From Candidatus Bathyarchaeia archaeon (lineage in GTDB: Archaea; Thermoproteota; Bathyarchaeia; Bathyarchaeales; Bathycorpusculaceae): 26,817 nt of DNA. Both the position numbers and the translations under genes were made by a program. Location: the NCBI GenBank assembly GCA_050010515.1, contig JBEKKX010000035.1:1-26817 (forward strand). The letters run 5' to 3'. Below are positions 1,762 to 26,498 of the stretch, one piece after another (position 1 is the stretch's first letter; every line of letters begins with the position of its first letter). Under the pieces are notes generated by a model. It was not told the DNA's origin, made no database searches, and was given only the letters and a program-made list of their open reading frames with translations.

Positions 1762-1786
1762 GCGCGCGCGGGACAAAGCAGCGCGC
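1762..1786. mobile_element. 25-bp collapsed remnant of the GCGCGC-ended element
   Basis: GCGCGCGC-GGGACAAAGCAGCGCGC. Positions 1770-1786 match the reverse complement of the element end GCGCGCTGGTTTGTCCC (26191, 26253) at 16/17. Confidence 0.75.
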
Positions 1787-1839
1787 TAATGCCTTTCAAC
1801 TATTTTTCTATTCCTACTTGTATTCCGATTCAGAATACG

Positions 1840-1856
1840 TAATAATGATTTATAAG
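1840..1856 (+). promoter_or_regulatory. Putative BRE/TATA promoter of the glycan operon
   Basis: A-rich stretch followed by TTTATAAG about 50 nt upstream of ATG 1903. Confidence 0.45.
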
Positions 1857-1902
1857 CGATCGCCAATATAATCACCGCGGTTGCAAGGACGGCAACGATA
1901 AC

Positions 1903-2061
1903 ATGAGTGTGCGCTGTAGAGTGGAGCAGAAGGCAAGTGCAGGGCCGAAAAATACGTTTTTGGGTGTTCCGTCTGTCGGGAAGCTTGTTGAGTTTAAGAG
2001 GGCTGCCCTGAGGCGGGGCTTGTGGTTTAGGGTGTTAGATCGAGCTGAGAGGGGCGTAATA
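1903..2061 (+). pseudogene. 3'-truncated paralog of the hypothetical gene 2145..2522
   Basis: LVEFKRAALRRGLWFRVLDRAERGVI aligns with LLQFKHKAMRAGVWFKALLRIDRVLV. Similarity stops at the GCGCGCGC scar (2062), and the ORF reads through to 2148. Confidence 0.75.
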
Positions 2062-2144
2062 GCGCGCGCGAAAAGGAAGACCTACCCCAAGTTTTTTATT
2101 GGGAAACATGTGTATGTTTGTCTGCTCCTTGAGGGGGTAAAAAC

Positions 2145-2522
2145 ATGACGCTTAAGACTGTTAAAGATGGTTCTCAGAGCATACTTAACCGAATGCAACT
2201 ACTGCAGTTCAAGCATAAGGCCATGCGTGCTGGCGTATGGTTCAAAGCTTTACTTAGGATTGACAGAGTGCTTGTTGATTTAACGATAAAAGTAGCTGAC
2301 AACATTCGCAGTCATTATTTGGCTAAGTGTATCTTGGCTGTTGTGGGTAAGTTGGAAGGGCTTTTGGAAAGCAGTGTCTTAAGCTCGTTAAGGCTGGTCG
2401 GTCGCCCTCTTGCTGAGAAAATTAGTTTAATGGCTCAGAAATGGGGTCATGCTTCTGCTAAAAACTGGGCTACTGATGAATCTTTGGCAGTTTTCTTGGC
2501 TGTAATGCATACGAACGGATGA
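2145..2522 (+). CDS. Hypothetical basic helical protein heading the glycan operon
   Basis: 125-aa ORF with a GAGGGGGT RBS-like site. A paralog fragment lies immediately upstream. No recognisable catalytic motif. Confidence 0.8.
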   Translation: MTLKTVKDGSQSILNRMQLLQFKHKAMRAGVWFKALLRIDRVLVDLTIKVADNIRSHYLAKCILAVVGKLEGLLESSVLSSLRLVGRPLAEKISLMAQKWGHASAKNWATDESLAVFLAVMHTNG

Positions 2523-2555
2523 TTTCATGGAATATTTAACTGGTAATTAATTCGT

Positions 2556-3497
2556 ATGCCAAAGAAAGTTTTGGTTACTGGTGGGGCTGGTTTCATTGGC
2601 AGCCATTTAGTTGACCGGTTAGTTAAAGATGGCTATGATATTAGAGTTATTGATGATTTGTCCACTGGTAGACTTGGTAATATTGAGGGTCATTTGAGTG
2701 CTGGTAAGGTTGATTTTGTTAAAGGCGACATTCGTGATGCTTCGCTTGTTTCAAAAAGTGTTGATGGTGTTGATGTGGTTGTTCATTTGGCTGCTTTGAC
2801 GAGTGTGCCTTTTTCTGTTAAGAATCCTGATTTAGTTTTTGACGTTAACGTCGTGGGAACTTTGAATTTAATTCGTGCTTACGCTCAAGAGGATGTTGAT
2901 AGGTTCGTGTTTGTTTCTAGTTGTGCGGTTTACGGTGATCCTGAGTTTTTGCCTGTGCGTGAGGAGCATCGGCCTAATCCGATTTCGCCTTATGCTGAGT
3001 CTAAGCTTTTAGCCGAGCGTTACTGCTTGGGTTTTCAGGAGCGGCAGCTTTTGCGGTCGGTTGTTTTGCGTTTCTTTAACGTTTATGGTCCAAGGCAAGG
3101 TATGAATGAGTATAGTGGAGTAATAACGCGTTTCGTTGATCGTGTAAGACGAAAGGAGCCGTTGGTTGTTTATGGTGATGGTTCACAAACGCGGGATTTT
3201 GTTTGTGTGTATGATGTTGTTGATGCTGTTTTAGCTTCTATGAAAAGCAGTTGTGCCGAGGGGGAAGTTTTCAATGTTGGTTCTGGTAAGCCCACTTCTA
3301 TCGGTGAGTTGGCTAAGACGGTTTTAGAGTTGGCTGGCGTGGACTTGATGATTCGTTATGAAAAGGCCAGAGCTGGCGACATTAAACACAGTTATGCGGA
3401 TATTTCTAAAGCTAAAAAGCTTTTGGGTTATGAGCCGCGGGTTTGTTTGCGGGATGGTTTGCGAGTGTTGCTTGAAGAAAAATTGGTAGTTGGCTAA
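2556..3497 (+). CDS. NAD-dependent nucleotide-sugar epimerase/dehydratase (GalE-like extended SDR)
   Basis: VTGGAGFIG, HLAA, SSCAVYG, YAESK (YxxxK), RFFNVYGP, GDGSQTRDF. Confidence 0.93.
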   Translation: MPKKVLVTGGAGFIGSHLVDRLVKDGYDIRVIDDLSTGRLGNIEGHLSAGKVDFVKGDIRDASLVSKSVDGVDVVVHLAALTSVPFSVKNPDLVFDVNVVGTLNLIRAYAQEDVDRFVFVSSCAVYGDPEFLPVREEHRPNPISPYAESKLLAERYCLGFQERQLLRSVVLRFFNVYGPRQGMNEYSGVITRFVDRVRRKEPLVVYGDGSQTRDFVCVYDVVDAVLASMKSSCAEGEVFNVGSGKPTSIGELAKTVLELAGVDLMIRYEKARAGDIKHSYADISKAKKLLGYEPRVCLRDGLRVLLEEKLVVG

Positions 3498-4449
3498 ATT
3501 GGTTGAAATTGGAGATATAAGGGAATTATTAGATAGGTTGGATCTGCTTGTTGTTGCAGGTATTCCAGCTTACAATGAAGAGAAGACTATTGCGCGGGTT
3601 GTTTTGGGGGCTCAGAAGCATGCGCATGTTGTGATTGTCTGTGATGATGGCTCAACGGATTTGACTGGGGAAATTGCGGAGCGTCTGGGTGCTGTTGTGG
3701 TTCGTCATGAACGAAATGCTGGTTACGGTGCGGCTATGCAGAGTCTGTTTAAGCGGGCGTGGGCGTTGAAGGCTGATGTGTTTGTTACTTTGGATGCGGA
3801 TGGGCAGCATGATCCTGCCGAGATTCCGCGGCTAGTTAAACCTATAAAAGACGGCGTTGCAGAAGTGGTTTTAGGCAGCAGATTCATGGATAAGAATGGA
3901 ACCGCTGATATGCCGACGTACAGGCAATTTGGCGTGAAAGTAATCACAACGTTAGCTAATGGATCTGGGAAAAATGGCGTTAGCGATGCTCAGAGCGGTT
4001 TTAGAGCATACAGCAAACGTGCCATGGAGCAACTGGGAGACATTTCTGAGAACGGCATGAGTGCCAGCATCGAACTTCTCCGAGCAGTCCATAAAAGTGG
4101 CTTAAAAATCTGCGAAGTGCCTATTTCATGCAAATATGCAGACACCGTGGGAATAAAAACGTCAACCGAAAATGCAGCCAAGCATGGCATGGGTCTTCTA
4201 ATGTCGTTAATCAAACTTGTTGTCGAAGATAGACCTCTCCCATTTCTTGGAATACCCGGCATAATGTTTATCGCTTTAGGCACGTTGTTTGGAGTTTGGA
4301 TGATGGACATATATGCCTCCACACACAGTATAGTGACAAATGTCGCGTTGGCATCTATTGCATTCATTCTGATAGGTTTCTTCATGGTATCAACAGCCAT
4401 AACGCTGTATGCGATAACAAGGTTATCAAAAAAAATGAATGTTAACTAG
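3490..4449 (+). CDS. GT2 glycosyltransferase, polyprenol-phosphate glycosyltransferase (DPM/DPG synthase-like) with two C-terminal TM helices
   Basis: IPAYNEE, DDGSTD, DADGQH, DAQSGFRAY and two hydrophobic C-terminal segments. The start codon is uncertain. Confidence 0.92.
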   Translation: MAKLVEIGDIRELLDRLDLLVVAGIPAYNEEKTIARVVLGAQKHAHVVIVCDDGSTDLTGEIAERLGAVVVRHERNAGYGAAMQSLFKRAWALKADVFVTLDADGQHDPAEIPRLVKPIKDGVAEVVLGSRFMDKNGTADMPTYRQFGVKVITTLANGSGKNGVSDAQSGFRAYSKRAMEQLGDISENGMSASIELLRAVHKSGLKICEVPISCKYADTVGIKTSTENAAKHGMGLLMSLIKLVVEDRPLPFLGIPGIMFIALGTLFGVWMMDIYASTHSIVTNVALASIAFILIGFFMVSTAITLYAITRLSKKMNVN

Positions 4450-4468
4450 GGTAACTGAGGTTAAGTAA

Positions 4469-5395
4469 ATGGTTAAAAAAGTGTTGGTAACGGGCGGTTT
4501 GGGCTTTATAGGCTCAAATCTAGTTCGAGAATTGGAAAAGCGTGGGTATGAAACTTGGGCTTGCGATTTGATGCATTCTTGGCAGCCTAATTATGTTCGT
4601 TGTGACGTTAGCAAATTCAGGCAAGTGGAGCGATTGTTTGCAGAGCATGACTTCGATTATGTTTATCATGCCGCAGCCGAGTATGGCAGATGGAACGGAG
4701 AAGACTACTTTGAAAATCTCTGGGCTACAAACGCTGTAGGCACTAAGAACATTCTGAGAGTACAGGAAAAGAAGAAGTTTCGGATGATTTTCTTTGGCAG
4801 CGCTGAGGTTTACGGTGATTATGACGGTGTCATGCGGGAAGACGTTATGGACACTATTCCAATTAAGCAGATGAACGATTATGCCATTTCCAAATGGGTT
4901 AATGAAATGCAGATTTTAAATTCTGCAGCTATGTTTGGGACGGAATCAGTTCGAGTTCGCTTGTTCAATGTTTATGGTGTGGGCGAGCATTATACCCCTT
5001 ACCGTGGGTGGATACCAAAATTCATCTATAAAGCCATGAGAAATGAGCCTTACACGGTTTACTTGGGTCACAAACGTACACTTGAATATGTTGAGGATCT
5101 CTGCAGAACATTTGTTAACATAATTGATAACTTTAAGCTTGGCGAAATTTACAATTTAGGCGGCGACACCCAATACGACATAAAATACGTTTCCGATTTA
5201 ATTCTAAAAAACCTAAACAAGGACGATTCCAAAGTTTCTTACAAAGAAGCTGAACCCTTCACAACTAGAATCAAAACGCCTGATGCGTCAAAGGCGAAAA
5301 AAGATTTGGATTTTAAGCTAATCATTTCTCCGGAAGAAGGCATGCGGAGAACTGTTGAATGGTTCAAGAAACTGTATGGTGAACAAAGTGCTTAA
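4469..5395 (+). CDS. NAD-dependent nucleotide-sugar epimerase/dehydratase
   Basis: VTGGLGFIG, SAEVYG, YAISK, RLFNVYG. Confidence 0.92.
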   Translation: MVKKVLVTGGLGFIGSNLVRELEKRGYETWACDLMHSWQPNYVRCDVSKFRQVERLFAEHDFDYVYHAAAEYGRWNGEDYFENLWATNAVGTKNILRVQEKKKFRMIFFGSAEVYGDYDGVMREDVMDTIPIKQMNDYAISKWVNEMQILNSAAMFGTESVRVRLFNVYGVGEHYTPYRGWIPKFIYKAMRNEPYTVYLGHKRTLEYVEDLCRTFVNIIDNFKLGEIYNLGGDTQYDIKYVSDLILKNLNKDDSKVSYKEAEPFTTRIKTPDASKAKKDLDFKLIISPEEGMRRTVEWFKKLYGEQSA

Positions 5396-5411
5396 CGGAG
5401 AGAAGTTTGGA

Positions 5412-6416
5412 ATGAACAAAAAAGTGCTTGATGCATTCAATGAGAAAACTGTGCTGGTAACTGGCGGAGCAGGAGCTATAGGTTCTAACTTGGTAAAAAC
5501 GCTAAGTAACTTGGAAACAAAGAAAATTATAATCATAGACGACCTTTCTTCGTCTTATGAATGGAATATACCAGCAAGCCCAAAGGTTGCTTTTATAAGA
5601 GGCAATATTCTTGATGATGAAAAGTTAAGGTGGGCGTTTAAAGAGAAACCTCAAATAGTGTATCATCTGGCAGGTCATTTTGCCAACCAGAACTCAGTGG
5701 ATAATCCTGAAACCGACTTGATGGTCAATGGAATGGGTACATTAAAGGTTCTGGAGCACGCTCATCTAGTTGGCGTTGAACGTTTCATTTATGCATCTTC
5801 AGGCTGTGGAATATACGGTGCAGACTCCAAAATGCCCTTTGAAGAGCATGACGTGTCTATGAAGCTCTATACGCCTTACCAAGTGACCAAGATGTTGGGA
5901 GAACTTTACACCAACTACTTCTACAACCTCTACAATCTCCCAATTGTAAATGCAAGGTTCTTCAATTCGTATGGTCCAGGCGAAGTTCCAGGAAAATACC
6001 GCAACGTTATACCTAACTTCTTCTACTGGTCAATAAACAAGCAGCCTCTTCCGATTACTGGAACCGGCGACGAAACAAGAGACTTCACCTATGTAGGCGA
6101 TATCGTAAGCGGTCTGTTGGCAATGGCATCCTCGGAAGAAGCCGTTGGCGAAGCTTTTAATCTGGCAACGGGTCGAGAAATCAGAATAGGCGACCTGGCA
6201 CAGTGGATAATTGAGATAACTGGTAATGAAGCTGGAGTAGTGTTTAAAGAGCAGAGAGATTGGGACAAGAAAAATAGGCTCTTGGCTTCGATTGAAAAGG
6301 CAAAGCGCGTTCTTGGATATGAACCAAACATGGATTTCAAAAAAGGTCTAAAGCATGTCCATGCTTGGTTCAAAGAAAATTGGCAAAGCATTACGGGTTC
6401 GCAAGCGTTCAATTAA
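5412..6416 (+). CDS. NAD-dependent nucleotide-sugar epimerase/dehydratase
   Basis: VTGGAGAIG, SSGCGIYG, YQVTK, RFFNSYGP, GTGDETRDF. ATG 5412 is preferred over 5355 because it avoids overlap with the upstream gene. Confidence 0.92.
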   Translation: MNKKVLDAFNEKTVLVTGGAGAIGSNLVKTLSNLETKKIIIIDDLSSSYEWNIPASPKVAFIRGNILDDEKLRWAFKEKPQIVYHLAGHFANQNSVDNPETDLMVNGMGTLKVLEHAHLVGVERFIYASSGCGIYGADSKMPFEEHDVSMKLYTPYQVTKMLGELYTNYFYNLYNLPIVNARFFNSYGPGEVPGKYRNVIPNFFYWSINKQPLPITGTGDETRDFTYVGDIVSGLLAMASSEEAVGEAFNLATGREIRIGDLAQWIIEITGNEAGVVFKEQRDWDKKNRLLASIEKAKRVLGYEPNMDFKKGLKHVHAWFKENWQSITGSQAFN

Positions 6417-6453
6417 TGATATATCTAACTGTTATATTTGTGGGTTCTGCATC

Positions 6454-7683
6454 GTGAGAGTTTTAGTGGTGGCTCAATATTTTCCGCCTGATATGGGTGG
6501 CGGTGCCACAAGAGCTTACAATATGGCAAAGGGGCTTTCACTTGCGGGTTGTGATGTAACAGTAGTTGCTGCTTTTCCTCATTATCCTACTGGAAACATA
6601 CCAGCCAAATATCGTGGAAAATTGTTGGCTATCGAAAACGAAGGAAAGTTAAGAGTAATACGGACATTTATTCCCCCGGTAGCGTCAGAAGGGTTTACCA
6701 AGAGATTTTTGCTATTTACATCTTTTATGTTTTCTTCTTTATCCGCATTGCCACTAGTTCGTAAAGTTGACGTGGTATATGCTTCGAATCCGAACATAAT
6801 TGCCATGATTCCAAGTTTAATGTATAAACTGGTTAACAACTGTCCCGTGGTTCAGAACGTAGATGATCTTTGGCCTGAAGCCCTTTACGATTTAGGCATG
6901 AACAGTAAGTCTCTATTGGCAAAATTGGGTGAATTCGTAGCCAAGGTAACATATAGGTTTGCTTCAGCTATTACACCAATCAGTCCCGGGTATGTCAAGG
7001 TATTAACTCAAAAATATGATGTGAAACCAAGCAAAGTTAGTGTAGTGCCAGCTGGCGTTGACTTGGCAATGTTCTCTTGTAAGAGCGTCACTGGATCAAA
7101 AAATGGTAAGTTCAGAGTTTTGTATATTGGTGCCTTCTCTCCAGCATACGATTTTGGCCAGATATTTCGAGCAGCGAAGCTGTTGGCTAATTCTGAAGGG
7201 ATAGAGTTTGTTATCCAAGGTGGGGGCGAACTTGCTTCGGCTTTAAAATCCAAAAGTGAAGAGACAAAATCAAATAATGTTAAAGTGATTGAAAAAATTG
7301 TTAGTCGCCAAGAAGTTGTAAAAGAACTCTATGAAGCTGATGCACTGCTTCTTCCCTTGAACGGTATTGGCTCTATAGAAATGGGCATATCTTCTAAGCT
7401 CTATGAATATCAAGCTGCAGGTAAACCGATAATATGTTGCTCTAACGGTCAGCCAGCCCGCTACGTGTCAGAAACCAAATCTGGTATTGTAGTTAAACCT
7501 GGGGATTATAAAACATTGGCGAAATCAATCCTCTACTTGAGAGGGAATAGAATCGCTGCTGATGAACTGGGGAAGTTTGGAAGAGAATACGTTGAAAACA
7601 ACCTGTCGATTGATAAGATAGGCTTCAAAATGAAAAAACTCCTCGGAGCCTTAACACAGAGGGCTTCAGCTAGGGGTATGTAG
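6454..7683 (+). CDS. GT4 glycosyltransferase (WbuB/Cap1E-like)
   Basis: RVLVVAQYFPPDMGGGA, FPHYPTG, DLWPE, SKLYEYQAAGKPII. GTG 6454 is the probable start. Confidence 0.92.
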   Translation: MRVLVVAQYFPPDMGGGATRAYNMAKGLSLAGCDVTVVAAFPHYPTGNIPAKYRGKLLAIENEGKLRVIRTFIPPVASEGFTKRFLLFTSFMFSSLSALPLVRKVDVVYASNPNIIAMIPSLMYKLVNNCPVVQNVDDLWPEALYDLGMNSKSLLAKLGEFVAKVTYRFASAITPISPGYVKVLTQKYDVKPSKVSVVPAGVDLAMFSCKSVTGSKNGKFRVLYIGAFSPAYDFGQIFRAAKLLANSEGIEFVIQGGGELASALKSKSEETKSNNVKVIEKIVSRQEVVKELYEADALLLPLNGIGSIEMGISSKLYEYQAAGKPIICCSNGQPARYVSETKSGIVVKPGDYKTLAKSILYLRGNRIAADELGKFGREYVENNLSIDKIGFKMKKLLGALTQRASARGM

Positions 7684-7719
7684 GTTATCACAGATGGAGC
7701 TGTATTAGAGTGAAAGAGC

Positions 7720-7956
7720 ATGGGCAAGATTAAAGTTGCAATAGTTGGATGCGATTTTGTAGCCCAAGCGCGCTATTGTGAGGTTTTGGCTGAAGCTGTG
7801 ATAAGTTTGAAGGAAAATTCAGAGCTGGCGCGGATGATGGGTGAGAACGGAAGAAAATACGTGGAAACTGAGGCATCCGTTGAAGCCGTAGGCTTAAAAA
7901 TGAAGGAAATCTTCGAAACGTTACCGCAAACAAGGTATCAAAAAATTGGCTCTTAG
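7720..7956 (+). pseudogene. Chimeric remnant: Gfo/Idh/MocA-type oxidoreductase N-terminus fused to a GT4 C-terminus
   Basis: MGKIKVAIVGCDFVAQ (degenerate GCGxxA Rossmann start), then GCGCGC at 7768-7773, then EVLAEAVISLKENSELARMMGENGRKYVE, which is homologous to the end of 6454..7683. Confidence 0.8.
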
Positions 7957-7980
7957 AAAGTGTTCCATCACCGGAAGGGA

Positions 7981-8489
7981 ATGATTTACGTGGGAAGTTT
8001 GAAGTATAGTCCAGTGTACAAGTCTCATTGTTGTGCATTCGGAGAAGCATGTGAGGAATCTGGGTATTCAATAAGGTATCTTTTTAGTCGTGAGTATGAG
8101 TGGATGCTGTCGAAACGGGTGAAGGAAAAAGCTGTCTTTATTGGGCGCTCGACTAGCATTCTTTCGATGTTAAAAGATACTTTGAATTTGAAAAATATCA
8201 AAACCATAAATGAAATATTCTCGAAAGACCCCAAACCCATTGTCTATTTGCATAATTATCATTTGTTAAATAATCTTATTGCAAGGATGTGTGAAAGGTA
8301 CGAATTACGGTTTGGTTTATTCAGATATTCAGGAGTTTGCAGAAAATATCATCAAACTTTTGAAAGACGTTGAAATGTGCGAACAAGTTGGAAAGAATGG
8401 GTTATCGATACGCTAAAGATAACCATGATGAAGTGAAACTCGCTCGCAAACTAGAGACAATTTTGCATCAAAAATCCAGAACTCAATAA
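7981..8489 (+). pseudogene. Internally deleted or chimeric glycosyltransferase remnant
   Basis: An N-terminal ORF runs to about 8300. A different frame then gives GLVYSDIQEFAENIIKLLKDVEMCEQVGKNG, a frameshift, and YRYAKDNHDEVKLARKLETIL*, a typical GT4 C-terminus. Most of the GT-B fold is missing. Confidence 0.7.
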
Positions 8490-8582
8490 TCAAGTGACGC
8501 AGTATCGGAATAACTCACGTATCGCTTTTTAGGCTATAACACAGAATAAACACGTTCAAATTGTAGTCTTGGGTCTAAAAAT

Positions 8583-9794
8583 ATGAGAATTCTTCAAGTA
8601 GTTCCCTACTTCTACCCGGCTTATGCTTTCGGAGGACCAATTAAAATGGTCTGCCAAATTTCTACGGAGTTGGCGAAGCGAGGGCACGAAGTTGTTGTTT
8701 ACACAAGTGACGCTAGAGATTTCAATTCGCGATTGAAACCCCGTTTCCGAAAAATCGATGGGGTAAGCGTTTTTTATATCAAAAACTTGTCGATGTTTTC
8801 AGTTAGCAAATCCAAACTGTTCATAACTCCTCAATTAATTCCATTGATTGAGAAAGAGGGTTGGGCATTTGATATTATTCATTTGCATGAATATAGAACT
8901 TTTCAAAACTTAGTCGTAGCAAGATATGCAAAAGCGCATGGGATTCCGTATGTTTTTCAAGCACACGGTTCTTTACCCAAGATAGGCCGACAATCTAGAA
9001 AGTGGGTTTTTGACGCTTTTTTTGGTTTTAGACTATTGAAAGACGCTTCAATGACTATTGCTCTCACTCGCGCTGAACGTCATCAACTTCGACGCATGGG
9101 CGTCCCTGAGGAAAAGATAGCTCTTATTCCTAATGGATTAGATTTGTCACAATATGCTTTTCTACCTGCTAAGGGGTCTTTTAGGAAAAAGCATAATATT
9201 CCAGAAAATAGGAAAATAATACTCTATTTAGGGAGAATTCATGAAATAAAGGGGATAGACATTTTGGTTAAAGCATATTCATATGCAAAAAAAACGTTGC
9301 GGCTAAACAATGCAGTGCTCGTTATATGTGGGTCAGATGATGGATATTTAGGTGAATTGGAGAATTTGTTGGTCTCCCTAGGGTTAACACATGATGTTCT
9401 GTTGACAGGACCATTATTCGGGAAGAATAAACTTGAGGCTTACCAGGATTCAGACATTTTCGTCTTGCCGTCACGTTATGAGACTTTTCCAAACGTTGTT
9501 TTAGAAGCGTACGGTTGTTCTAAACCGGTTATTGCTTCTAATGTCGAATCAATGTCTGATATTGTCTTGGACGGAATTACAGGGTTTTTGTTTGAAGCTA
9601 ACGATGTAAAAAGATTGGCAGAACTACTTATAAATGTTCTATCGAATGAAAAAGAGGCTGAAAAGATGGGTAAGACGGCCCGCGAGTTTGTAGAGAGGAA
9701 TTTCTCAATTGAAAGAGTAGTGGATTCCTTTGAAGTTCTCTTCAGGGATAGCTTAAAAAAAATAGAAAGGAGTCAAAAATATGCACAGATATAG
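8583..9794 (+). CDS. GT4 glycosyltransferase
   Basis: MRILQVVPYFYPAYAFGGP, LGRIHEIKG, PSRYETFPNVVLEA (EX7E). Confidence 0.94.
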   Translation: MRILQVVPYFYPAYAFGGPIKMVCQISTELAKRGHEVVVYTSDARDFNSRLKPRFRKIDGVSVFYIKNLSMFSVSKSKLFITPQLIPLIEKEGWAFDIIHLHEYRTFQNLVVARYAKAHGIPYVFQAHGSLPKIGRQSRKWVFDAFFGFRLLKDASMTIALTRAERHQLRRMGVPEEKIALIPNGLDLSQYAFLPAKGSFRKKHNIPENRKIILYLGRIHEIKGIDILVKAYSYAKKTLRLNNAVLVICGSDDGYLGELENLLVSLGLTHDVLLTGPLFGKNKLEAYQDSDIFVLPSRYETFPNVVLEAYGCSKPVIASNVESMSDIVLDGITGFLFEANDVKRLAELLINVLSNEKEAEKMGKTAREFVERNFSIERVVDSFEVLFRDSLKKIERSQKYAQI

Positions 9795-10934: not shown

Positions 10935-10937
10935 CCA

Positions 10938-12083: not shown

Positions 12084-12095
12084 GCGAGGACTATA

Positions 12096-12995: not shown

Positions 12996-13172
12996 CCTTG
13001 CAGATATTTCTCATTGGCGGATTGGTTATGTCCAAATGCCTGATTACCTCTACAAAGGTAAACTTTCCTCTTTTCTTTCTTTTCTTAACCAAGAGAAAAG
13101 AGAAGCACGCGCGCCAAGTCGAGCAAAAAATCCTAAATCAACTAAAAATAAACTAATCTAACATTATCTGTA

Positions 13173-18907: not shown

Positions 18908-19069
18908 GTGATGAGCGCTAAGATAACATTCGTAGAGACTTATGTTCTCAAGATTCCTGTAAAAATTCGCTTAAGTACTGGTGAAGTTGGCGAAACTAGC
19001 CACTTAATAACTGAGGTTCACACTGACTGTGGCGTAATGGGTATTGGCGAGAGAACCTCCTATGCGTTT
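18908..19069 (+). pseudogene. N-terminal fragment of a mandelate racemase/muconate lactonizing (enolase superfamily) enzyme
   Basis: KITFVETYVLKIP...LITEVHTDCGVMGIGE matches the MR/MLE N-terminal (V.TD.G..G.GE) pattern. It is cut off at GCGCGC 19070. Confidence 0.8.
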
Positions 19070-19075
19070 GCGCGC

Positions 19076-19562
19076 GAAAACGTTTCAGTAGCAAATCTGT
19101 GCCTTGCTGGGTTTTACAACACTACATTAACAGCTCAAGACGCCACAATTTACCTTTCAGGCGATGAATTGCCATTAATCGAAATATCATTGAATAGTCT
19201 AAAGATTTATGTCGATAAATCTGCTATCAACTTGACCATTCAGGAAAAATGGTCAGGAAAAAAGCCTAACTGTAACTAACGGTTCTATTGAATTTGAATT
19301 TGCTGGAAATTTCACAACCAATTTAATACTTCAAGAACCAGTAATTATGTTAAATCAAGGATCATTAAATACTTCTTGGGAAGGAGTATTCTGGTACGAT
19401 TGCAAGACATTCACTACCGTATCCACCGCTGAACCTTTTCCGATAATTGGTTCCTATTCTTTTCAGATTATGAATGTTGACAATGCTGGTTTGCTTTTAA
19501 TCAAAAATATTCAAGATATCCGTGTAGAAATAAAGCCAACGCAATACTGGACAAACGGGTGA
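19076..19562 (+). pseudogene. 3' fragment of a paralog of the 1465-aa membrane protein
   Basis: After a frameshift in the A-run near 19245 it reads QEKSLTVTNGSIEF..NLILQEPVIMLNQGSLNTSWEGVFWYDCK, against NSKNLLFTSGNLTI..NIALNQPTIKLNGTLNLSAWQGIFWYGDK in 14446..18843. Confidence 0.8.
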
Positions 19563-19572
19563 CGCTCAAAGA

Positions 19573-20287
19573 ATGGGTAGCTCATTAATAGGACAAAAAT
19601 ACAAGGAAACTTATGAAAAAAGAGCCAACGATAAGTTTGAAGAAAACTGCGATAAATCTCGGTATTTTAGAGTACCTTTCTATTTTCGGTACTGCTTGCC
19701 AACCTCGCAAAATGTCTGGATTCTTGATATCGGCGCAGCAGATGGAATAGTGGTTGAAAGGTTTAAAGAAAATGGTGTCGGTTGCGACATTGCTTTTCAG
19801 TATTGCCTAAGGATGAATAGCAAAGGAATTCAAAGCGTTTGTTGCGCTGCAGAGTATCTCCCTTTTCGCAAAGGCTCGTTTGGTTTTATTATTGCAAGTG
19901 CAATCTTAGAGCATGTTATTGATTTGAGAGAATGTGTAAATGAATTAATTGGGCTACTAAAAGAAGGCGATTTACTATTAATAAATGTGCCATATTTAGA
20001 AGATTTAACCCCCTACTTGCAATGTAAATATGAGTTCTCTCATTTGAGAAGTTTCGATGAATCATTTTTGGTGAAGTTATTCAGAGATCTCAATGTGGTG
20101 CGTATCTACTATCACGATTTCAACTTTGTTTTTGCATATTAGATCTCCATTGATAAATAGAATACTTGGGATATTATACACCACTATCCCTAAGAGACTC
20201 GAATATCTTTTACTGAAGACAAAATGGACCAAATGGATGAAGCCGTTCTCGATAAGTATCATATTCCAAAAAAAGGATTCTATGTAG
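19573..20287 (+). pseudogene. Class I SAM-dependent methyltransferase, probably frameshifted near 20130
   Basis: ILDIGAADG motif I, AEYLPF, ILEHV and LINVP. The ORF stops at 20142. A second frame continues to TAG 20287, 1 nt before the next ATG. Confidence 0.7.
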
Positions 20288-20288
20288 C

Positions 20289-21500
20289 ATGTCGAGTGTA
20301 ACAAAAACAAAATCGTTTCTTTTCATTATAGGATTTACATGCCCTTTCCCCGGAGCTGGCTGGTGGCGAATCTTTAACTTTGCAAGACATTTTGGCGAGA
20401 AAGATTATAAATGTTGTGTTCTATCTTGTTTTTCGCTTAGCACCATTGATTCTCCGAAGGTTGTGCGAAACGAGCAAGTCTACATTTATAATGTGCTTCC
20501 GTGCATTGAGGTGAACAATCCATTCATTCTGTTTCTTAACAATATTTTGGCTTCAATCGCTTCCATTCCTTCCTTTCTCTTTTTCAGACCTAGCGCCGTC
20601 ATAATATCTGTGCCCCCACCCGATCAACTCGTGCCAATATTCTTGTTATCAAAAATTATGAGGCGTAAAATTATAATCGACTACAGAGATGAGTTTGAAG
20701 ATTATCTGATAATGAACACAAGAAAATGGGGTTTCTTCTATCGCTTCTTCAAAAAATTCCTCACAAGCCTCTACAGAAATGCTGCAATGGTTACTCCTGT
20801 AACACCTGCGGTGGCAGAAGACTTGAAGCGCAGAGGTGTTCATAATGTTAAGGTGACATACGATGGTGTTGACACCAAAATTTTTCAACCATACAATAAA
20901 AGTAAGATGAGATCCGAATTCCATCTTCCTCAGGACAGTTTTGTTATAGCGTATATAGGAAACATATACAAGCCTTATCGTGTAGACGTTGTCATTAGAG
21001 CCTTGAAGCAACTAAACGAAAAAAACCCAAAACGTAAATACTTACTAATTCTTGCAGGAGGTGGAGACATGAAAAGCGTCTTAGATCTGGCCAATAACCT
21101 TGGAATAAGTGATTCTGTGAAATACTTTGGAGTGATCAAGAATCCAACTGAAATAGCCAAAATCTTAAGCTCGGCTGACTGCGGCATAATACCTTACGAC
21201 GACAATCCTTTATGGCAGAAAACCTACTCAACAAAATTGTTTGAATACTGCGCCGTTGGGCTACCTGTAATGGCAACCGTTCATGAAAATTCCGCTCTAG
21301 CGACTGCCATAAAGGCAAATCACATTGGTTTAATAACTCCACCAATAAACAGTGACGATTTAGCTACAGCCATAGAGATATTAAACATCGATAAAGACTC
21401 AAGGCTCAAAATGAGTTCATCTGCATTACAATTTGCCCGAACATACGATAAAGATAAGTTAGCAAGAGATTTGCTAGAAACTATAGAGAGTTTACAGTAG
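20289..21500 (+). CDS. GT4 glycosyltransferase
   Basis: DYRDE, DGVDTKIF, YIGNI, TKLFEYCAVGLPV. Full-length GT-B size. Confidence 0.92.
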   Translation: MSSVTKTKSFLFIIGFTCPFPGAGWWRIFNFARHFGEKDYKCCVLSCFSLSTIDSPKVVRNEQVYIYNVLPCIEVNNPFILFLNNILASIASIPSFLFFRPSAVIISVPPPDQLVPIFLLSKIMRRKIIIDYRDEFEDYLIMNTRKWGFFYRFFKKFLTSLYRNAAMVTPVTPAVAEDLKRRGVHNVKVTYDGVDTKIFQPYNKSKMRSEFHLPQDSFVIAYIGNIYKPYRVDVVIRALKQLNEKNPKRKYLLILAGGGDMKSVLDLANNLGISDSVKYFGVIKNPTEIAKILSSADCGIIPYDDNPLWQKTYSTKLFEYCAVGLPVMATVHENSALATAIKANHIGLITPPINSDDLATAIEILNIDKDSRLKMSSSALQFARTYDKDKLARDLLETIESLQ

Positions 21501-22354: not shown

Positions 22355-23812
22355 ATGTCTCCGCGTATCAAGAAAGCATTTACATGCCTAATGGTTGCTT
22401 TGTCACTATTAGGTATGGTTGGCGCTACGTTCGGGTGGGACTATTACCCAACATCTTTTTCTTGGGGTTTCCAGAACAACTGTTTTTTTGGTTTTAATCA
22501 GGCAGTGAATTTCACCTCTGCTCCCCAGCTGGGTGTGCCTCATGACGATAGTTTAGTTGGTTACTGGGCGTTTGATGAGGGCAGCGGAACAGTAGCCAAT
22601 GATGGCAGCGGAAACGGTAACAACGGCACTCTCGGAGGCTCGCCTTTACCTTCGTGGGTTGCTGGGAAATATGGGGATGCTTTAAGTTTTAATGGTATAA
22701 ATGATTATGTTCAAGTTCCAAGTTCGAGTAGTTTAAACCCGACACAAATAACGATAGCGGCATGGTTAAACATCAGTTCTACTGGTAATGACCAATCAAT
22801 TGTTAATAAAATAATATGGGCTACTTCGGGCTATCGGCTTGTTGTTTTATCAAGTGGTGTCTTGGATTTTAATGTGGGGTTTGGAGGAGCCGATAGCGTT
22901 AGTACTGTTCCATATAATTCATGGACATTCGTAGTTGTTACGTTTGATGGTTCGTATGTCACGTTTTATGTGAACGGTGTATCTCAAACTGGGGATAGAA
23001 CTGCACTAAGGGGGTCAATTATTTCAAACACTACCCCTTTGGATATTGGTGAAAGTGGTGGGGAATATTGGGTTTTAGGTGTTATTGATGAAGTCCGCAT
23101 TTACAACCGCGCCTTATCCGCAGCCGAAGTCGCCGCATCGTATATTATGGGCCCGCAGCCTGACATTGCCTCTTTCGCCAACTACTACAGCTACACCGAC
23201 CCAGTCACTAACAATACTATGCTAATCCACGTCAATAACCCTAACGCAAGTAGCAACAACGTTGCCCTCGTTACATGCACAAACTTCTTCGCAGCCAAAA
23301 GGCTATCTTTCCAGGCTAACAACACTGCAACCATAAATGTGTGGACCAACCTCGGGCCACCCGCATTTACCACGGGCGTTTGGAACAGCCAAAACTACAC
23401 GACAACTCTAACGCTTAACGATGCTTCCACGGTGGAACTGAACTGGAACACCTACAATATTACAACATACGCTGACGCTCACGCGAGTGCTTCGCCTTCG
23501 AACGTGACAGTTGCTTATGGGGGAAGCCAAACCCTCAACTTCTCCGCAACGCAGGGATACAACTTCAAAGTCGCAGTCGACGGCACCCCGAAAGGGCAAA
23601 TCAGCAGCTACACCTTCAACAACGTGACAGCACCGCACACTGTCAATATAACTTCTACGCTGATACAGCCGTTTCCATTGGAACTACTAATAGTGGGAGC
23701 CATAGTGATAATAGTCGCTGTATTCGCTTTGGCTTTCAAAAAAGGCTACATAACCATCGAAGTGGTTGACGAAGAAAACCCACAAGAAACCCAAGACGAC
23801 TACACAATATAA
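22355..23812 (+). CDS. Membrane-anchored surface protein with a LamG/ConA-like jelly-roll domain
   Basis: Signal peptide, LVGYWAFDEGSG..DGSGNGNNG, ALSFNG..DYV, WTFVVVTFDG..YVNG, IDEVRIYNRALS, a short beta-repeat module, a C-terminal TM helix and an acidic tail. Confidence 0.92.
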   Translation: MSPRIKKAFTCLMVALSLLGMVGATFGWDYYPTSFSWGFQNNCFFGFNQAVNFTSAPQLGVPHDDSLVGYWAFDEGSGTVANDGSGNGNNGTLGGSPLPSWVAGKYGDALSFNGINDYVQVPSSSSLNPTQITIAAWLNISSTGNDQSIVNKIIWATSGYRLVVLSSGVLDFNVGFGGADSVSTVPYNSWTFVVVTFDGSYVTFYVNGVSQTGDRTALRGSIISNTTPLDIGESGGEYWVLGVIDEVRIYNRALSAAEVAASYIMGPQPDIASFANYYSYTDPVTNNTMLIHVNNPNASSNNVALVTCTNFFAAKRLSFQANNTATINVWTNLGPPAFTTGVWNSQNYTTTLTLNDASTVELNWNTYNITTYADAHASASPSNVTVAYGGSQTLNFSATQGYNFKVAVDGTPKGQISSYTFNNVTAPHTVNITSTLIQPFPLELLIVGAIVIIVAVFALAFKKGYITIEVVDEENPQETQDDYTI

Positions 23813-23946
23813 ATTCCAAACCTTCCTCAAAGGCTACGTTTGCTTTAATCAAACAAATCGCTCAAGCTTCTCTTTTTCAGCAAGTAAAGGCTCCAACATG
23901 TTTTTTAATTCGGTTATGATATGAATAAAAACGAAGGGTGGTTTTC

Positions 23947-24168
23947 TTGACGAAAGTAGTTCAGGTTAAGGTTCCAGAATTCCTGTCCGAAAAGGATGTT
24001 AGAATAGCTGCGGCGATAGAAGCTTTCTCTAAGGGTTCAATAAGTGTTGGAAAAGCAGCAGAAATAGCTGAGATACCTATCTAAGAGTTTCTCGTTGAGC
24101 TTAAAAAAAGAGGCGTAAAAGCATACCCGTACACGGACAAAGAGGCTCTTAAGGAGCTTATGCTTTGA
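23947..24168 (+). pseudogene. UPF0175-family antitoxin pseudogene
   Basis: TTG start after GAAGGGTGG. It reads AIEAFSKGSISVGKAAEIAEIPI*EFLVELKKRGV, with an in-frame TAA at 24082-24084. Confidence 0.85.
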
Positions 24169-24260
24169 GTAAAGCTGTCCTAAACTCCTAGGTCATAATA
24201 GCCCTAAACACGCTAGGCTACCTCAACAAATTGAAAACACTTTTTAAAGAAATCCTAATA
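24165..24260 (+). pseudogene. DUF3368-like PIN-domain toxin, 5' fragment
   Basis: TTG overlaps the antitoxin stop. It reads SKAVLNS*VIIALNTLGYLNKLKTLFKEILI with TAG 24189-24191 and is then fused to the repeat copy at about 24260. Confidence 0.75.
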
Positions 24261-24471
24261 GGTGCATTGGTCGCCGTGTTCGCTCATGCTTTCAAGAAAG
24301 GCTACATAACTGACGAAGTAGTTGACGAGGAAAGACTGAAGAAACCTCAGATGACTACACAATATAAATTCTCTCTTAGAGCAAGCCCAGACAGGTCTAA
24401 AATTTATTTTTATAGAAAAAATCAGCAAGAATCTCCCCAACTTTAATGTTGATGTTGTTTTCCAAATAGAC

Positions 24472-24606
24472 TTAGGATTCAACTGTTCGTGTGTCTTTGG
24501 AAAAATCGTCGTATGACATGCCCTTTGTGTACTTTTCGATTTTGTCAATAAATTCAATAATTTCGACAAATAAATCTGTAGTAACATTCCAAGAAAGTTT
24601 ACTCAT
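24472..24606 (-). pseudogene. HepT/DUF86-like (HEPN) ribonuclease, N-terminal fragment
   Basis: MSK...LFVEIIEFIDKIEKYTKGMSYDDFSKDTRTVES* resembles the DUF86 N-terminus. The RX4H catalytic half is absent. Confidence 0.7.
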
Positions 24607-24772
24607 TGAGCCGCCATTTCTTCGTAACTATCGTCACTGCAGGAAGACCCTCCAAAACGTACCTTTGCGCTCTATGAGAGCCTTTGTGAATTAGGACTGG
24701 ACCTTTCATCCTGCGACATTCACAGACGATTTGTTCGGCTCTAAGTTCGTCTCCAACTTCTTTTCCTATCAA
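24599..24772 (-). other. Short ORF translationally coupled to the RHH gene, probably a remnant of its partner gene
   Basis: TTG overlaps the TGA of the RHH gene. 57 codons, no recognised motif. Confidence 0.3.
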
Positions 24773-25110
24773 CTTACTTTTCCCTCTTCCCACAGTTTTT
24801 TCAAAACTTTAACTGTAAGATCCAAGTCAAGCCTGAGGTCATTGGCGATATCGAAAGTTTCAGCCTCTTTGTGCTCATTCAAGTAAGCGAGAATCTCTGT
24901 TCTAGCTTGCTGCATGCTGACGTTTTCTCTTATTTCAATAACTTTCAAGCCGCCAACTTCCTGAACATACTTTTCAGTTGCCTCTCTAATGAAAGCGCTC
25001 CTGGACTTTGCTCCTGCGCGTTTCACCGCTTCATCAATATTTTGAAGTTCATGTTTAGGGAAGCGTACGGGAACAATCGTTTCTTTTTCTACAACTTTCT
25101 GCATTATCAT
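24769..25110 (-). CDS. CopG/ribbon-helix-helix DNA-binding protein with a C-terminal winged HTH (antitoxin-like regulator)
   Basis: IVPVRFPKHELQNIDEAVKRAGAKSRSAFIREA (RHH) and EILAYL...TFDIANDLRLDLDLTVKVLKKLWEEGKV (wHTH). Confidence 0.85.
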   Translation of the reverse strand: MIMQKVVEKETIVPVRFPKHELQNIDEAVKRAGAKSRSAFIREATEKYVQEVGGLKVIEIRENVSMQQARTEILAYLNEHKEAETFDIANDLRLDLDLTVKVLKKLWEEGKVS

Positions 25111-25124
25111 CAACTTTATACGAA

Positions 25125-25148
25125 TAATACATGTAATACAAATTTAAA
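25125..25148 (-). promoter_or_regulatory. TATA box and tandem TGTATTA operator of the RHH gene
   Basis: Minus strand reads TTTAAATT-TGTATTA-CA-TGTATTA, ending 14 nt before ATG 25110. Confidence 0.55.
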
Positions 25149-25191
25149 GCTTACCATAATTAGGCGCTTTATCTTTCCCCAAAATCACTAT

Positions 25192-25276
25192 CTATTCTTT
25201 CCTCATGGTTCCTTCTTTATTGATTACTACATAGACTCTTGTCCCACATACCTTTTTGGAACATCCACTTAGCCGA
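25192..25276 (-). pseudogene. DUF2080-like (transposon-associated small protein) 3' fragment
   Basis: With two 1-nt frameshifts it reads SAK-VDVPKRYVG-RVYVVINKE...*, matching the SAKVDVPKxYxGxRxYVI pattern. Confidence 0.6.
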
Positions 25277-25297
25277 AACTATTTCACAAAAGATAGG

Positions 25298-25372
25298 ATG
25301 ATAGTTAAGATTTGCATTATTCTGGGAACTAGGCCCGAAATAGTAAAGTTTTCACCCATCATACGTGAATGA
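25298..25372 (+). pseudogene. wecB: UDP-N-acetylglucosamine 2-epimerase (non-hydrolysing) N-terminal fragment
   Basis: MIVKICIILGTRPEIVKFSPIIRE* contains the GTRPE.IK signature. Confidence 0.85.
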
Positions 25373-25510
25373 CTTCACTATACAATCGTAAAGCGCATCA
25401 GGAATAAAACCGCCCTCTTCACCCATCAAAGCCGTAATCAAAAGCCTTGCTGCCACTTAATATAAACTTGCTTGTAGTCAATTATTTTCAAATAATCTGC
25501 TATATATAGC

Positions 25511-25555
25511 CGCAAGATTTAAAGTGCACATTTTCACGATAATATTATCGTGGAA
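25511..25555 (+). promoter_or_regulatory. BRE/TATA promoter with a perfect 18-bp palindromic operator
   Basis: CGCAAGA-TTTAAAG at 25511-25524 and CACGATAATATTATCGTG at 25535-25552, ending 7 nt before ATG 25560. Confidence 0.75.
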
Positions 25556-25559
25556 TCAA

Positions 25560-26210
25560 ATGGTCAGCGCCGAGTTTATCGATAAGATATTCACTCAATT
25601 CTTGCCTAAACTATCAGAGAAGTATACTGTAAGAAAACTTTCGTTGCTAACAAAGTCTTCGTATGATGCAACCTACCGTCACGTCCACTATCTCATCAAG
25701 GAAAACGCATTAAAAGTAGAAAAGGTCGGCGCTTACTCCTACGTTAGCGTAAACTTCGAGAGTAATCTGGCAAGGAAAATAATTGAAAAAGTAAGCCTCA
25801 CTAAAACCGAGATTTTCCTGAAAAAAGACATAATAACTAAAAAACTGCTCGAAGAACTCATCAAAGAACTCAAAGACTCGATACCCAATGAATTACTATC
25901 CATGATCCTTTATGGAAGTTACGCCAAGGGAACACAGACAGAACAAAGCGACATAGACCTCCTCATTGTCGTCTCAACATTTGACACCAGAGACAAGATC
26001 GAAAGGATATGCGACGCAACGGAAATGCGATATGGAAAAGACATCGCACCATTAATCACAACAGCAACCGAACTCAGAAAAATGCTTAAATCAGAGACAC
26101 CAACCGTAGCACAAGAAATACTATTGGATGGAATAGTGCTCTTTGGATATGAAAAATATTACTCAATCATTTTCTCGGCAAACTCGGTAAGCGCGCTGGT
26201 TTGTCCCTAA
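25560..26210 (+). CDS. wHTH plus minimal nucleotidyltransferase (MNT/MntA-type antitoxin), last codons supplied by a mobile-element end
   Basis: GSYAKGTQTEQSDID fits GSX10DXD. The N-terminal HTH reads YTVRKLSLLTKSSYDATYRHVHYL. The terminal ALVCP* is encoded by the repeat starting at 26191. Confidence 0.88.
   Translation: MVSAEFIDKIFTQFLPKLSEKYTVRKLSLLTKSSYDATYRHVHYLIKENALKVEKVGAYSYVSVNFESNLARKIIEKVSLTKTEIFLKKDIITKKLLEELIKELKDSIPNELLSMILYGSYAKGTQTEQSDIDLLIVVSTFDTRDKIERICDATEMRYGKDIAPLITTATELRKMLKSETPTVAQEILLDGIVLFGYEKYYSIIFSANSVSALVCP
26191..26208 (+). mobile_element. Left end of a second GCGCGC-ended element (partner end not seen)
   Basis: GCGCGCTGGTTTGTCCCT is identical to 26253-26270. Confidence 0.75.
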
Positions 26211-26252
26211 AGTATGTTAATGTTTATTTTTGGGTTGGGGTCTCGTATCAAA

Positions 26253-26498
26253 GCGCGCTGGTTTGTCCCTTAATTGGTGTAAAATGGTTATAACTCTTAT
26301 TTTTTGATTTGGAGGCAAATTTGAGCTGTTTAACTTCTTACGGAATGGTTCGCACTTTACCAACGAATTGGGCACCATGTAAAACAAACGCGAAGACCCA
26401 GCTGTGCTATGTTCTCAAGAGTTAGTTTAGCACTTGAACATCCCCAAAAAGACGACTCTTAACCATTTTTAACCATGATAGGGACAAAGGCTGCGCGC
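26253..26498. mobile_element. 246-bp MITE with imperfect 44/45-bp terminal inverted repeats and a 7-bp target site duplication
   Basis: 26253-26296 against the reverse complement of 26454-26498 gives 33/45 identities, in blocks GCGCGC, TTTGTCCCT, TGGT and AAAATGGTTA. Flanks are TATCAAA (26246-26252) and TACCAAA (26499-26505). No transposase ORF. Confidence 0.85.

Follow-up and report, generated by a model that had tools for sequence, protein, structure and literature searches.

The 26,817-bp window analysed here is a complete contig (C35) of a Candidatus Bathyarchaeia archaeon assembly (G000; 2.38 Mb in 66 contigs, 42.6% G+C), and the metagenome runs containing it, wholly or in part (20 of the 21 listed), come from peat and wetland; other contigs of the assembly are cited by number, followed by position, and the genomes of relatives by G numbers. 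The window carries a surface-glycan locus with sugar epimerase/dehydratase and glycosyltransferase genes (Table 1), in which the hexamer GCGCGC recurs both as the end of mobile elements and as bare runs at points where genes are truncated or joined, and it is the origin of these bare runs that is considered here. Nine GCGCGC loci were found (1762 and 2062, each a run of eight, and 1781, 7768, 13109, 19070, 26191, 26253 and 26493), all of them at the positions given in an earlier analysis of the DNA letters (the sequence-only reading). Counted as overlapping matches they number 11, a value reached by none of 100 dinucleotide-preserving shuffles (mean 2.85, standard deviation 1.88, maximum 9), and with 296 loci in the genome, which corresponds to 3.34 expected in the window, the nine loci are in excess (Poisson P = 0.007). 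Repeat ends account for this entire excess. The motif GCGCGC-N3/4-TTTGTCCC is present in four copies versus 0.00 expected (1770-1786 and 26481-26498 on the minus strand, 26191 and 26253 on the plus strand), with a single further copy elsewhere in the genome (C48:640), which bears out the proposal that four of the nine loci are termini of one element family. The loci at 2062, 7768 and 19070 lie within short chimeric open reading frames (ORFs) and that at 13109 is intergenic; within the window it is also correct that no GCGCGC lies inside the body of an intact gene, as the locus at 26191 supplies only the 3' end of a nucleotidyltransferase ORF.

Three of the bare copies (2062, 7768 and 19070) sit precisely on homology breakpoints, in agreement with the sequence-only reading, which had placed them at truncations and fusions. 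At 2062, the 81-aa ORF 1903-2148 aligns to five of five homologous loci in relatives, and to the intact paralog 2145-2522, only through residue 53, with the GC run starting at the next codon, and all five homologs continue ...ERG(I/V)I-DLT..., with the DNA reading GAYCTNAC at the break; a protein search with this ORF gave a match to itself only. At 19070, five intact 411-417-aa proteins of the mandelate racemase/muconate lactonizing (MR/MLE) type match residues 1-54 of the ORF at 18908, the best being 94% identical, with ...YA(F/L)-RGKSYT in every one of the five at the position of ...YAF-AR-ENV in the window. The PF02746 (MR_MLE_N) match of this fragment is the sole match to the family in the genome and scores 20 bits (E 8e-4), below the cut-off of 22. 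ORF 18908-19279 had no relative among 100 genomes of the genus, and a metagenome scan with the intact MR/MLE homolog P0001 returned only relatives of 23-25% identity, with the undeleted locus not being found. At 7768, where two gene pieces are joined in frame, 12 of 12 longer proteins examined (of 74 found) read ...(P/A)GD-(Y/D/C/H)xA(L/F)(A/S)(E/K)AV..., the syntenic relative G013 has a longer family-4 glycosyltransferase (GT4) fragment without the hexamer at the matching place, and in an abundant relative, present in two of the four runs, 7489-7806 are replaced by 48 other letters, as expected of an intact single GT4 gene. By eye, the short upstream piece of this fusion may be a Rossmann-type N-terminus. 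At the fourth bare locus, 13109, no breakpoint was shown, and its assignment as a degenerate end of the second repeat family (described below) was rejected, with a score under the null.

At the protein level, the footprint is not templated by intact homologs on the one side of each joint that is readable, which applies to the five proteins at 19070, the 12 examined at 7768 and the five loci and paralog at 2062, in the latter case also at the DNA level; the question whether GCGCGC is native to the intact genes is thus answered in the negative for all three breaks on that side. When 10-30 breakpoints are assumed in the window, the probability of three of four bare sites lying within 6 nt of a breakpoint is 5e-7 to 1e-5. 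Independent contigs from public runs bridge 7768 (two of the four runs listed), 13109 (two of four) and 19070 (four of four) without differences, and parts of the window had no listed contig cover in runs X11 and X13, which are uninformative there. The joints at 7768, 13109 and 19070 are not assembly chimeras, and for these three the spanning of the junctions, which the sequence-only reading had left to be checked, is secured.

Elements are inserted at the borders of the glycan island, inside it and into one another, and the neighbouring DNA is cut off precisely where an element ends: the nucleotidyltransferase ORF continues into the element end at 26191, a family-1 insertion sequence is cut at 26253 by a miniature inverted-repeat transposable element (MITE), and a conserved repeat is cut at 1761. 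The proposal of a mobile family with self-complementary hexamer ends at this locus holds, and the family brackets the glycan cluster and truncates genes. The window MITE is small and transposase-free, shares its ends with family-1 insertion sequences and is present in several copies, one of which (C48:396-641) is 88.7% identical, with others in G124, G042 and further relatives in the genus; its 43-nt arms (26262-26304 and 26446-26488) are 74% complementary. Uninterrupted family-1 copies run on ...GTATCA(AA)TGAG... at the point where the MITE abuts, without GCGCGC, and at least two other elements in metagenome contigs abut the same family-1 spot, each with its own hexamer. At the other border of the island, relatives match 1619/1627-1760 at 74-83% in several places and continue with GGGTTCAA..., while the conserved repeat in the window ends ...TTTTG and the (GC)4 run of the 25-nt micro-remnant starts one base later, at 1762; an analogous 58-nt remnant is present at C16:55882-55939. 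The region 1580-1761 contains a stretch resembling a tRNA 3' end (GGTTCAAATCCGATCGGACCCGCC), and the ~115 nt that follow recur in at least three relatives, always ending in a hairpin. This repeat may be an attachment-site relic or a small RNA; ARAGORN detected no tRNA at 1580-1761 nor at four such loci, tRNA and Rfam scans of the window gave no match at gathering scores, and a permissive Rfam scan of 1000-2200 gave one snoRNA match at chance level. The GAACCC-TTTT-GGGTTC hairpin is also struck by element ends at C44:16482 and C11:1986.

Table 1. Features of the window, and copies of the elements in other contigs of the assembly (positions without a contig number are those of the window)
Feature	Position	Strand	Remarks
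Geranylgeranyl-reductase-like gene	2-1012		
Copy of a genus-conserved repeat	1619..1761	+	tRNA-3'-end-like stretch, ~115 nt, then GAACCC-TTTT-GGGTTC hairpin; cut after ...GAACCCTTTTG
Micro-remnant of family-1 element, 25 nt	1762..1786	-	(GC)4 joined to last 17 nt of inverted repeat (GGGACAAAGCAGCGCGC on + strand)
N-terminal 53 codons of a gene whose family members have roughly 130-200 aa	1903..2061	+	Truncated paralog of intact ORF 2145-2522
Bare (GC)4 at truncation point	2062..2069		No repeat-end similarity beside the run
Gene cluster of sugar epimerases/dehydratases, family-2 glycosyltransferases (GT2) and GT4	2556-12995		
Intact family-4 glycosyltransferase	6355..7683	+	
First 16 codons of another gene	7720..7767	+	MGKIKVAIVGCDFVAQ; too short for family search
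Bare GCGCGC joining two gene pieces in frame	7768..7773		Read as Ala-Arg
C-terminal ~55-60 codons of a second family-4 glycosyltransferase	7774..7956	+	84-92% to C-termini of intact ~400-aa enzymes
Bare GCGCGC between GT2 gene and frame-shifted GT4 gene	13109..13114		
Frame-shifted GT4 gene	13173-14235		
1465-aa ORF in the middle of the glycan cluster	14446-18843		Pfam: nothing above threshold; sole match 3keto-disac_hyd, weak (E 5e-4)
N-terminal 54 codons of mandelate racemase/muconate lactonizing-type enzyme	18908..19069	+	
Bare GCGCGC at truncation point	19070..19075		No repeat end beside it
Methyltransferase, further GT4, LamG-type protein, then ribbon-helix-helix gene	Between 1465-aa ORF and nucleotidyltransferase gene		
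Gene fragment cut without GCGCGC	25289..25369	+	27 codons, 81% to residues 3-29 of a relative's ORF
Nucleotidyltransferase ORF	25524..26210	+	Final 7 codons and stop come from the element end at 26191
First 62 nt of family-1 insertion sequence, transposase-proximal end	26191..26252	+	Cut by MITE at 26253
246-bp MITE	26253..26498	+	Imperfect terminal inverted repeats of ~45 nt starting GCGCGC; no flanking duplication
Segment duplicated at the end of contig C20	26501..26817	+	98%; starts 2 nt past MITE
Inverted-repeat-bounded 1-2-kb units	C16:53498-54619; C57:5607-6737; C45:1200-2410; C33:3818-4925		
MITEs of 165-481 bp without long ORFs	26253-26498; C48:397-640; C57:1927-2407; C44:16483-16647; C40:1229-1393		

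Genome-wide, the element ends form families of 30, 27 and 4 members, every one beginning with GCGCGC (GCGCGC-CAGYYTGTTGC; GCGCGC-TGSYTTGTCCC, together with GCGCGC-ATGSYTGTTCC; and GCGCGC-ATAAGTGKTCATTAAT, respectively), with the terminal run sometimes being GCGCGCGC instead. Many of these ends are located ~120 nt from contig ends, as collapsed repeats are. Complete copies are 1108-1211 bp in length and encode transposases with an N-terminal DUF772 (PF05598) and a DDE_Tnp_1 domain (PF01609), both of which were detected in four intact copies (C16, C45, C57 and C62) and in the degraded copy in C33. In NCBIfam (NF033581/NF033551 comparison), the three 331-336-aa transposases are nearest to IS5 and IS1182, yet score under both curated cut-offs (IS5_4, 65.6-122.4 versus 140, the best 121-122; IS1182, 113-155 versus 270, the best 149-155), while the 483-aa transposase in C62, on an element likewise ending in GCGCGC, passes for IS1182 with 372.6 bits versus the same cut-off of 270. 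Transposases related to these at 41-97% identity were detected at 37 loci, of which 36 belong to Bathyarchaeia/Bathyarchaeota metagenome-assembled genomes (MAGs), and at 20 of these 37 loci a script found inverted-repeat pairs, the ends again beginning with (GC)n. No direct duplication was found outside the hexamers in any of the nine complete elements of this genome, nor at the inverted-repeat pairs from other genomes. The MITEs share their inverted repeats with the insertion sequences and are present in multiple copies and in multiple genomes, also without flanking duplication. The elements are a superfamily of ~1.1-1.3-kb IS5/IS1182-like insertion sequences with their MITEs, common in this genome and in Bathyarchaeia MAGs; the sequence-only reading did not recognise the end sequence from a described IS family, but the elements are not of an unknown kind, as the transposases are IS5/IS1182-like DDE enzymes.

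The 296 GCGCGC loci of the genome consist of 82 element ends or repeats and 214 bare loci, of which 119 are in ORFs and 95 are non-coding. The non-coding proportion (44%) compares with 13.4% pooled over 13 control hexamers consisting of G and C only (P = 2e-28). With element ends masked, Markov models of order 1-3 predict 54-75 copies in non-coding DNA, where 118 were found, and 174-367 in coding DNA, where 128 were found. Runs of eight make up 26 of the non-coding bare loci, while longer runs number eight among the 119 coding loci (seven of eight and one of ten), and an A directly precedes the run in 28% of coding flanks, but in 47% of those at non-coding bare loci and 61% of those at element ends. 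A series of decreasing size is anchored on the hexamer, from insertion sequences of 1.1 kb via MITEs (165-481 bp), remnants of 25 and 58 nt, hexamer pairs 12-66 nt apart and an 11-mer to bare (GC)3-4; this 11-mer, GCGCGGCGCGC, has five copies in the genome, all non-coding, versus 0.2 expected. Decayed solo inverted repeats were considered as a source of the bare hexamers and rejected, since a decayed repeat end above the 99% null was present beside only 1/95 non-coding and 0/119 coding loci. Non-coding intervals with bare hexamers did not differ in length from those at random non-coding positions, and the closeness of bare hexamers to element ends is raised only about two-fold.

The nearest relatives, G042, G124 and G004, show ~91-94% identity in a core region. 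Within six 20-kb regions compared with relatives, 5/16 bare non-coding loci are no more than 10 nt away from where an alignment ends versus ~0.65 expected, an expectation calculated from the numbers of listed alignments (Poisson P about 5e-4); in four of the six regions the hexamers are mostly in homolog-free islands or in conserved blocks, and 1/11 loci is on an alignment end. Across the genome, bare (GC)3-4 is thus concentrated both in non-coding DNA and at breakpoints of synteny or homology, in line with the sequence-only reading. The block C13:92171-94551 (a UbiA-type gene, an unnamed gene and a thymidylate-kinase gene) is 94% identical to contig C13 of G042 and is bounded exactly by GCGCGCGC and GCGCGC, while the sequence of G042 continues past both ends of the block with neither GC run. 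This block is part of a 9.8-kb island (C13:85227-94994) directly after a tRNA-like 3' end, a place occupied by 7 nt in G124 and by 5.2 kb of different sequence in G042; the island has a mosaic structure, in which the visible joints are (GC)3-4 runs. At C13:67945, homology to both relatives begins at the inner edge of a (GC)4 run, where G124 is without a GC run. The 11-mer GCGCGGCGCGC occupies C13:72678-72688 in this genome, while the same flanks in G042 and G080 hold a (GC)4-like run, ~750 nt and a (GC)3-like run, the inserts being 95% identical and consisting of a gene piece and half a MITE with its inverted repeat, with point changes in the runs of G080. A single loss in this genome would be mechanistically simpler than the gain of a one-ended composite, the direction being inferred, and on this comparison the locus looks like an emptied element site. 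An 820-nt family-1 element at C13:70208-71027, the only clean case of filled and empty sites, has empty counterparts in G042 (GGGC-AT-GCC) and G124 (AGACCT-GCC). The flanks of the two MITE copies of G124 had no counterpart in this genome, and MITE copies in five complete or near-complete relatives were too few for a survey of flanks.

Two further loci were noted in these comparisons. At C4:23331-23454, G042 (contig C14) carries 1115 nt of inserted DNA that terminates in a MITE-type repeat, while the corresponding stretch in this genome is 124 nt long and leads into the degenerate last ~20 nt of the repeat, ending GTGCGC, which exemplifies erosion in place. The 1.5-kb gene C1:2267-3766, in C1:2128-3778, has counterparts of 74-75% identity at unrelated positions in three relatives and is flanked by two GCGCGCGC runs, 131 nt upstream and 5 nt past the end of the gene.

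We consider it plausible, though not proven, that the bare runs are what remains of elements that were lost after having made a deletion, fusion or transfer, and we put the probability of this scar reading at roughly 55%. An element end would make the deletion or fusion, the body of the element would later be lost, and bare (GC)3-4 would be left behind, as at 2062, 7768 and 19070; the (GC)4 run beside the 17-nt remnant at 1762-1786 would be the same kind of leftover. The self-complementarity of the hexamer means that the two inverted ends of an element double as direct repeats, so that a single copy would be left if the DNA between them were lost. This loss could occur by the joining of self-complementary termini, either within one element or between two elements on either side of the lost DNA, via host slippage or annealing, or alternatively by transposase excision leaving the hexamer behind. 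The sequence-only reading had proposed a self-erasing deletion mechanism; the bare hexamers at breaks, not templated on the readable side, are in keeping with this proposal, but the joining of termini was not observed and a partial target origin is suggested.

In a more specific version of the scar reading, which is tentative and in our view rather doubtful, the transposase would make staggered cuts across the hexamer, with the transferred strand cut outside it and the other strand inside, so that the donor flanks would carry self-complementary GCGCGC overhangs which could anneal and be sealed by ligase alone. One departing element would then leave a (GC)n scar of 6-11 nt, while two elements together would excise everything between them, leave one scar and fuse unrelated genes. 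Scars and GC-rich palindromes would be preferred landing sites, and the whole would amount to a self-healing cut-and-paste system which assembles and prunes variable tRNA-adjacent islands from hexamer-bounded blocks. Staggered cuts would explain the missing target duplication, the hexamer being kept across divergent repeat families, and the hexamer-bounded housekeeping block in C13. Archaea generally lack Ku-type end joining, and sealing by ligase alone would suit them.

Several observations weigh against the bare runs being scars. The four bare loci in the window compare with 2.41 expected at the genome rate (P = 0.22); their position is unusual, but their number is not. The 27-codon fragment of Table 1 that is cut (at 25370) without GCGCGC, and which matches an ORF of a relative that is presumably a UDP-GlcNAc 2-epimerase, demonstrates that hexamers mark some breaks, not all. 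More than half of the bare loci in the genome (119/214) are inside ORFs of at least 120 aa, in gene calls that are crude (longest ORFs of that length, covering 75% of the genome), and G013 carries the hexamer within two intact orthologous genes, so that the hexamer alone is not diagnostic. Pfam searches with 84 peptides read across bare non-coding hexamers gave a match for seven, with one truncated domain abutting the run, albeit at low power; the matches include a truncated integrase-core fragment starting at C13:106060 and a Cas1 fragment 42 residues from the run, the remainder being intact genes or upstream regions. Some non-coding bare hexamers belong to other small repeats, and no hexamer was present at the borders of two duplicated segments shared with contig C55. 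At C13:72678 every relative has the break and none the unoccupied state, and the identities give no clear tree. The left 'hexamer' of the element at C13:70208 reads GGGCGC, of which the outer GGGC recurs in the empty site of G042, which suggests that part of the hexamer can be flank or target sequence; this overlap could reflect microhomology at insertion, or the G042 site could itself be an old footprint. The lack of duplication outside the hexamers would fit a hexamer which is the duplication itself. Finally, neither an excision event nor a polymorphic pair of filled and scar sites was seen within the population, and the listed contigs show no joint at bare hexamers.

Two side observations belong to these loci. 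An intact but more distant paralog of the 27-codon fragment is present at C1:117958-118551. The non-coding hexamers at C9:38772, C12:59367 and C41:4585 occupy the same place in a small shared motif, with ..CCAAATATGATTCAACATAG.. located 20-25 nt upstream, which indicates that some bare hexamers are part of another repeat or a regulatory motif.

The main rival to the scar reading is a model in which the hexamer is a palindromic target that is duplicated on insertion as a 6-bp duplication, and owes its apparent membership of the inverted repeat solely to being self-complementary. We regard this as unlikely, and give about equally little credence to its corollary that bare hexamers are unused or re-emptied targets, with the breakpoint hexamers arising by recombination between elements sitting in such targets. 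A duplicated target would explain why no other duplication is found at nine of nine complete elements or at the pairs in other genomes, why one and the same hexamer precedes four otherwise different inverted-repeat families, and why the run length varies from 6 to 8; the outer four bases of the left hexamer at C13:70208, which equal the flank of the relative's empty site, and the housekeeping gene block flanked by runs without element ends point the same way, as do three flanks in relatives that are short palindromes (CAAAG|CTTTG, GTCACA..TGTGAC and GGCATGCC). The uninterrupted family-1 copies are difficult to reconcile with it, since they lack GCGCGC at the T-rich spot where the window MITE and at least two other elements abut, and the same applies at C57:122-149. 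The intact homologs of the broken genes are also without the hexamer, the hexamer is kept wherever an element end meets new DNA (26191, 26253 and 26498), and the non-coding excess of bare hexamers is left unexplained.

The hexamers could also be unrelated to the elements, with GCGCGC being a preferred site of breaking and rejoining, for instance by a BssHII-like enzyme with cohesive CGCG ends or through Z-DNA or hairpin-prone (GC)n. A single hexamer is just what the rejoining of two cut sites would leave, it bounds gene blocks that lack element ends, and its under-representation in coding DNA (128 versus 174-367 expected) is often seen for restriction sites. Such breakage needs a native hexamer on both sides, however, and this is absent on the readable side at three joints and in the relative at both ends of the C13 block; moreover, 82 of the 296 loci are element ends, remnants keeping part of the inverted repeat link the two classes, and no GCGCGC-specific enzyme was found, with no search aimed at one having been made. 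We therefore consider breakage at the hexamer improbable. That ordinary hexamers merely happen to sit at three breakpoints would agree with their unexceptional number in the window and with hexamers inside intact genes both here and in relatives, but is very hard to accept given the P value of 5e-7 to 1e-5 for the three of four sites and the recurrence of the association elsewhere in the genome (5/16 loci versus ~0.65).

The elements resemble the IS5 and IS1182 families (NF033581, NF033551) in having a single DDE transposase (DUF772 and DDE_Tnp_1), a length of 1.1-1.3 kb and terminal inverted repeats, but differ in that the 331-336-aa transposases score under the curated cut-offs and all ends begin with (GC)3-4. 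Members of the IS5 family make target duplications of 2-9 bp, unlike the nine complete copies here, in which none lies outside the hexamer. The inner part of the family-2 repeat (..CTTGTTGCAAAA..) may resemble IS903-type ends. Prokaryotic MITEs are alike in size (165-481 bp here), shared inverted repeats and the presence of several copies, while those described here have no flanking duplication and end in a palindromic hexamer. Precise and nearly precise excision of Tn10 and Tn5, known from E. coli genetics, proceeds by host slippage between short direct repeats, assisted by inverted repeats. This is the same kind of process as the terminal joining proposed above, but the Tn10/Tn5 repeats are the target duplication or internal, and the gene is restored or nearly so, whereas here the outcome would be a scar of 6-11 foreign nucleotides, in many cases located where a deletion was joined. 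Eukaryotic cut-and-paste transposons (Tc1/mariner and hAT) leave a few terminal or flanking bases at the donor site, and these footprints are stereotyped, as is the recurrent GCGCGGCGCGC in this genome; we know of no description of stereotyped excision footprints for prokaryotic insertion sequences. IS903 and IS1 make adjacent deletions via intramolecular transposition, with the element staying in place in the classical case; genes are likewise cut exactly at the element end here (26191, 26253 and 1761), but three joints hold the hexamer only. Of the known processes, insertion sequence-mediated adjacent deletion and Tn10-type precise or nearly precise excision come closest. A search of the full-text literature for GCGCGC-ended elements, judged from the result listings, gave nothing relevant. 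What emerges is an ordinary class of elements whose palindromic terminus is unusual, which show no visible duplication and which probably leave a short scar at rearrangement joints throughout the genome.

If the scar reading is true, (GC)n marks of 6-11 nt record past activity of insertion sequences that is hidden from ordinary IS finders, with ~95 non-coding marks in this genome beside the 82 recognisable element ends, and the cutting, fusing and shuffling of surface-glycan and tRNA-adjacent islands of uncultured Bathyarchaeia would be readable at nucleotide resolution. For transposition chemistry, a DDE family that has palindromic termini but no target duplication would be out of the ordinary as well, with an enzyme whose small size puts tests within reach. 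A practical result holds independently of the scar reading: one definable element family is where the contig breaks, pseudogenes and chimeric ORFs of these MAGs cluster.

Other observations were made in and around the glycan locus. Window positions 24574-25219 (around the ribbon-helix-helix gene) and 23782-24202 (past the LamG-type gene) match separate contigs of G042 at identities of 96% and 98%, respectively, far above the 70-90% of the glycan genes, and the bins 23500-25491 had 7-30 times the neighbouring depth in runs X11 and X13, which suggests a module that is mobile or shared. Positions 23714-23816, comprising the final ~100 nt of the LamG-type gene with the DNA downstream, recur 556 nt further on at 24270-24371, with 82-83% identity. 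Contig C55 carries copies of window positions 1202-1428 (98%) and 3353-4065 (90%) in a different arrangement and ends in element repeats, and looks like a second, rearranged glycan locus. In contig C28 of G013 (~19750-20850), a gene pair lies between the epimerase and GT2 genes of the syntenic cluster, with a 114-nt duplicate of the 3' end of the epimerase gene, and by eye this pair may encode a nucleotidyltransferase and a HEPN/DUF86-type protein.

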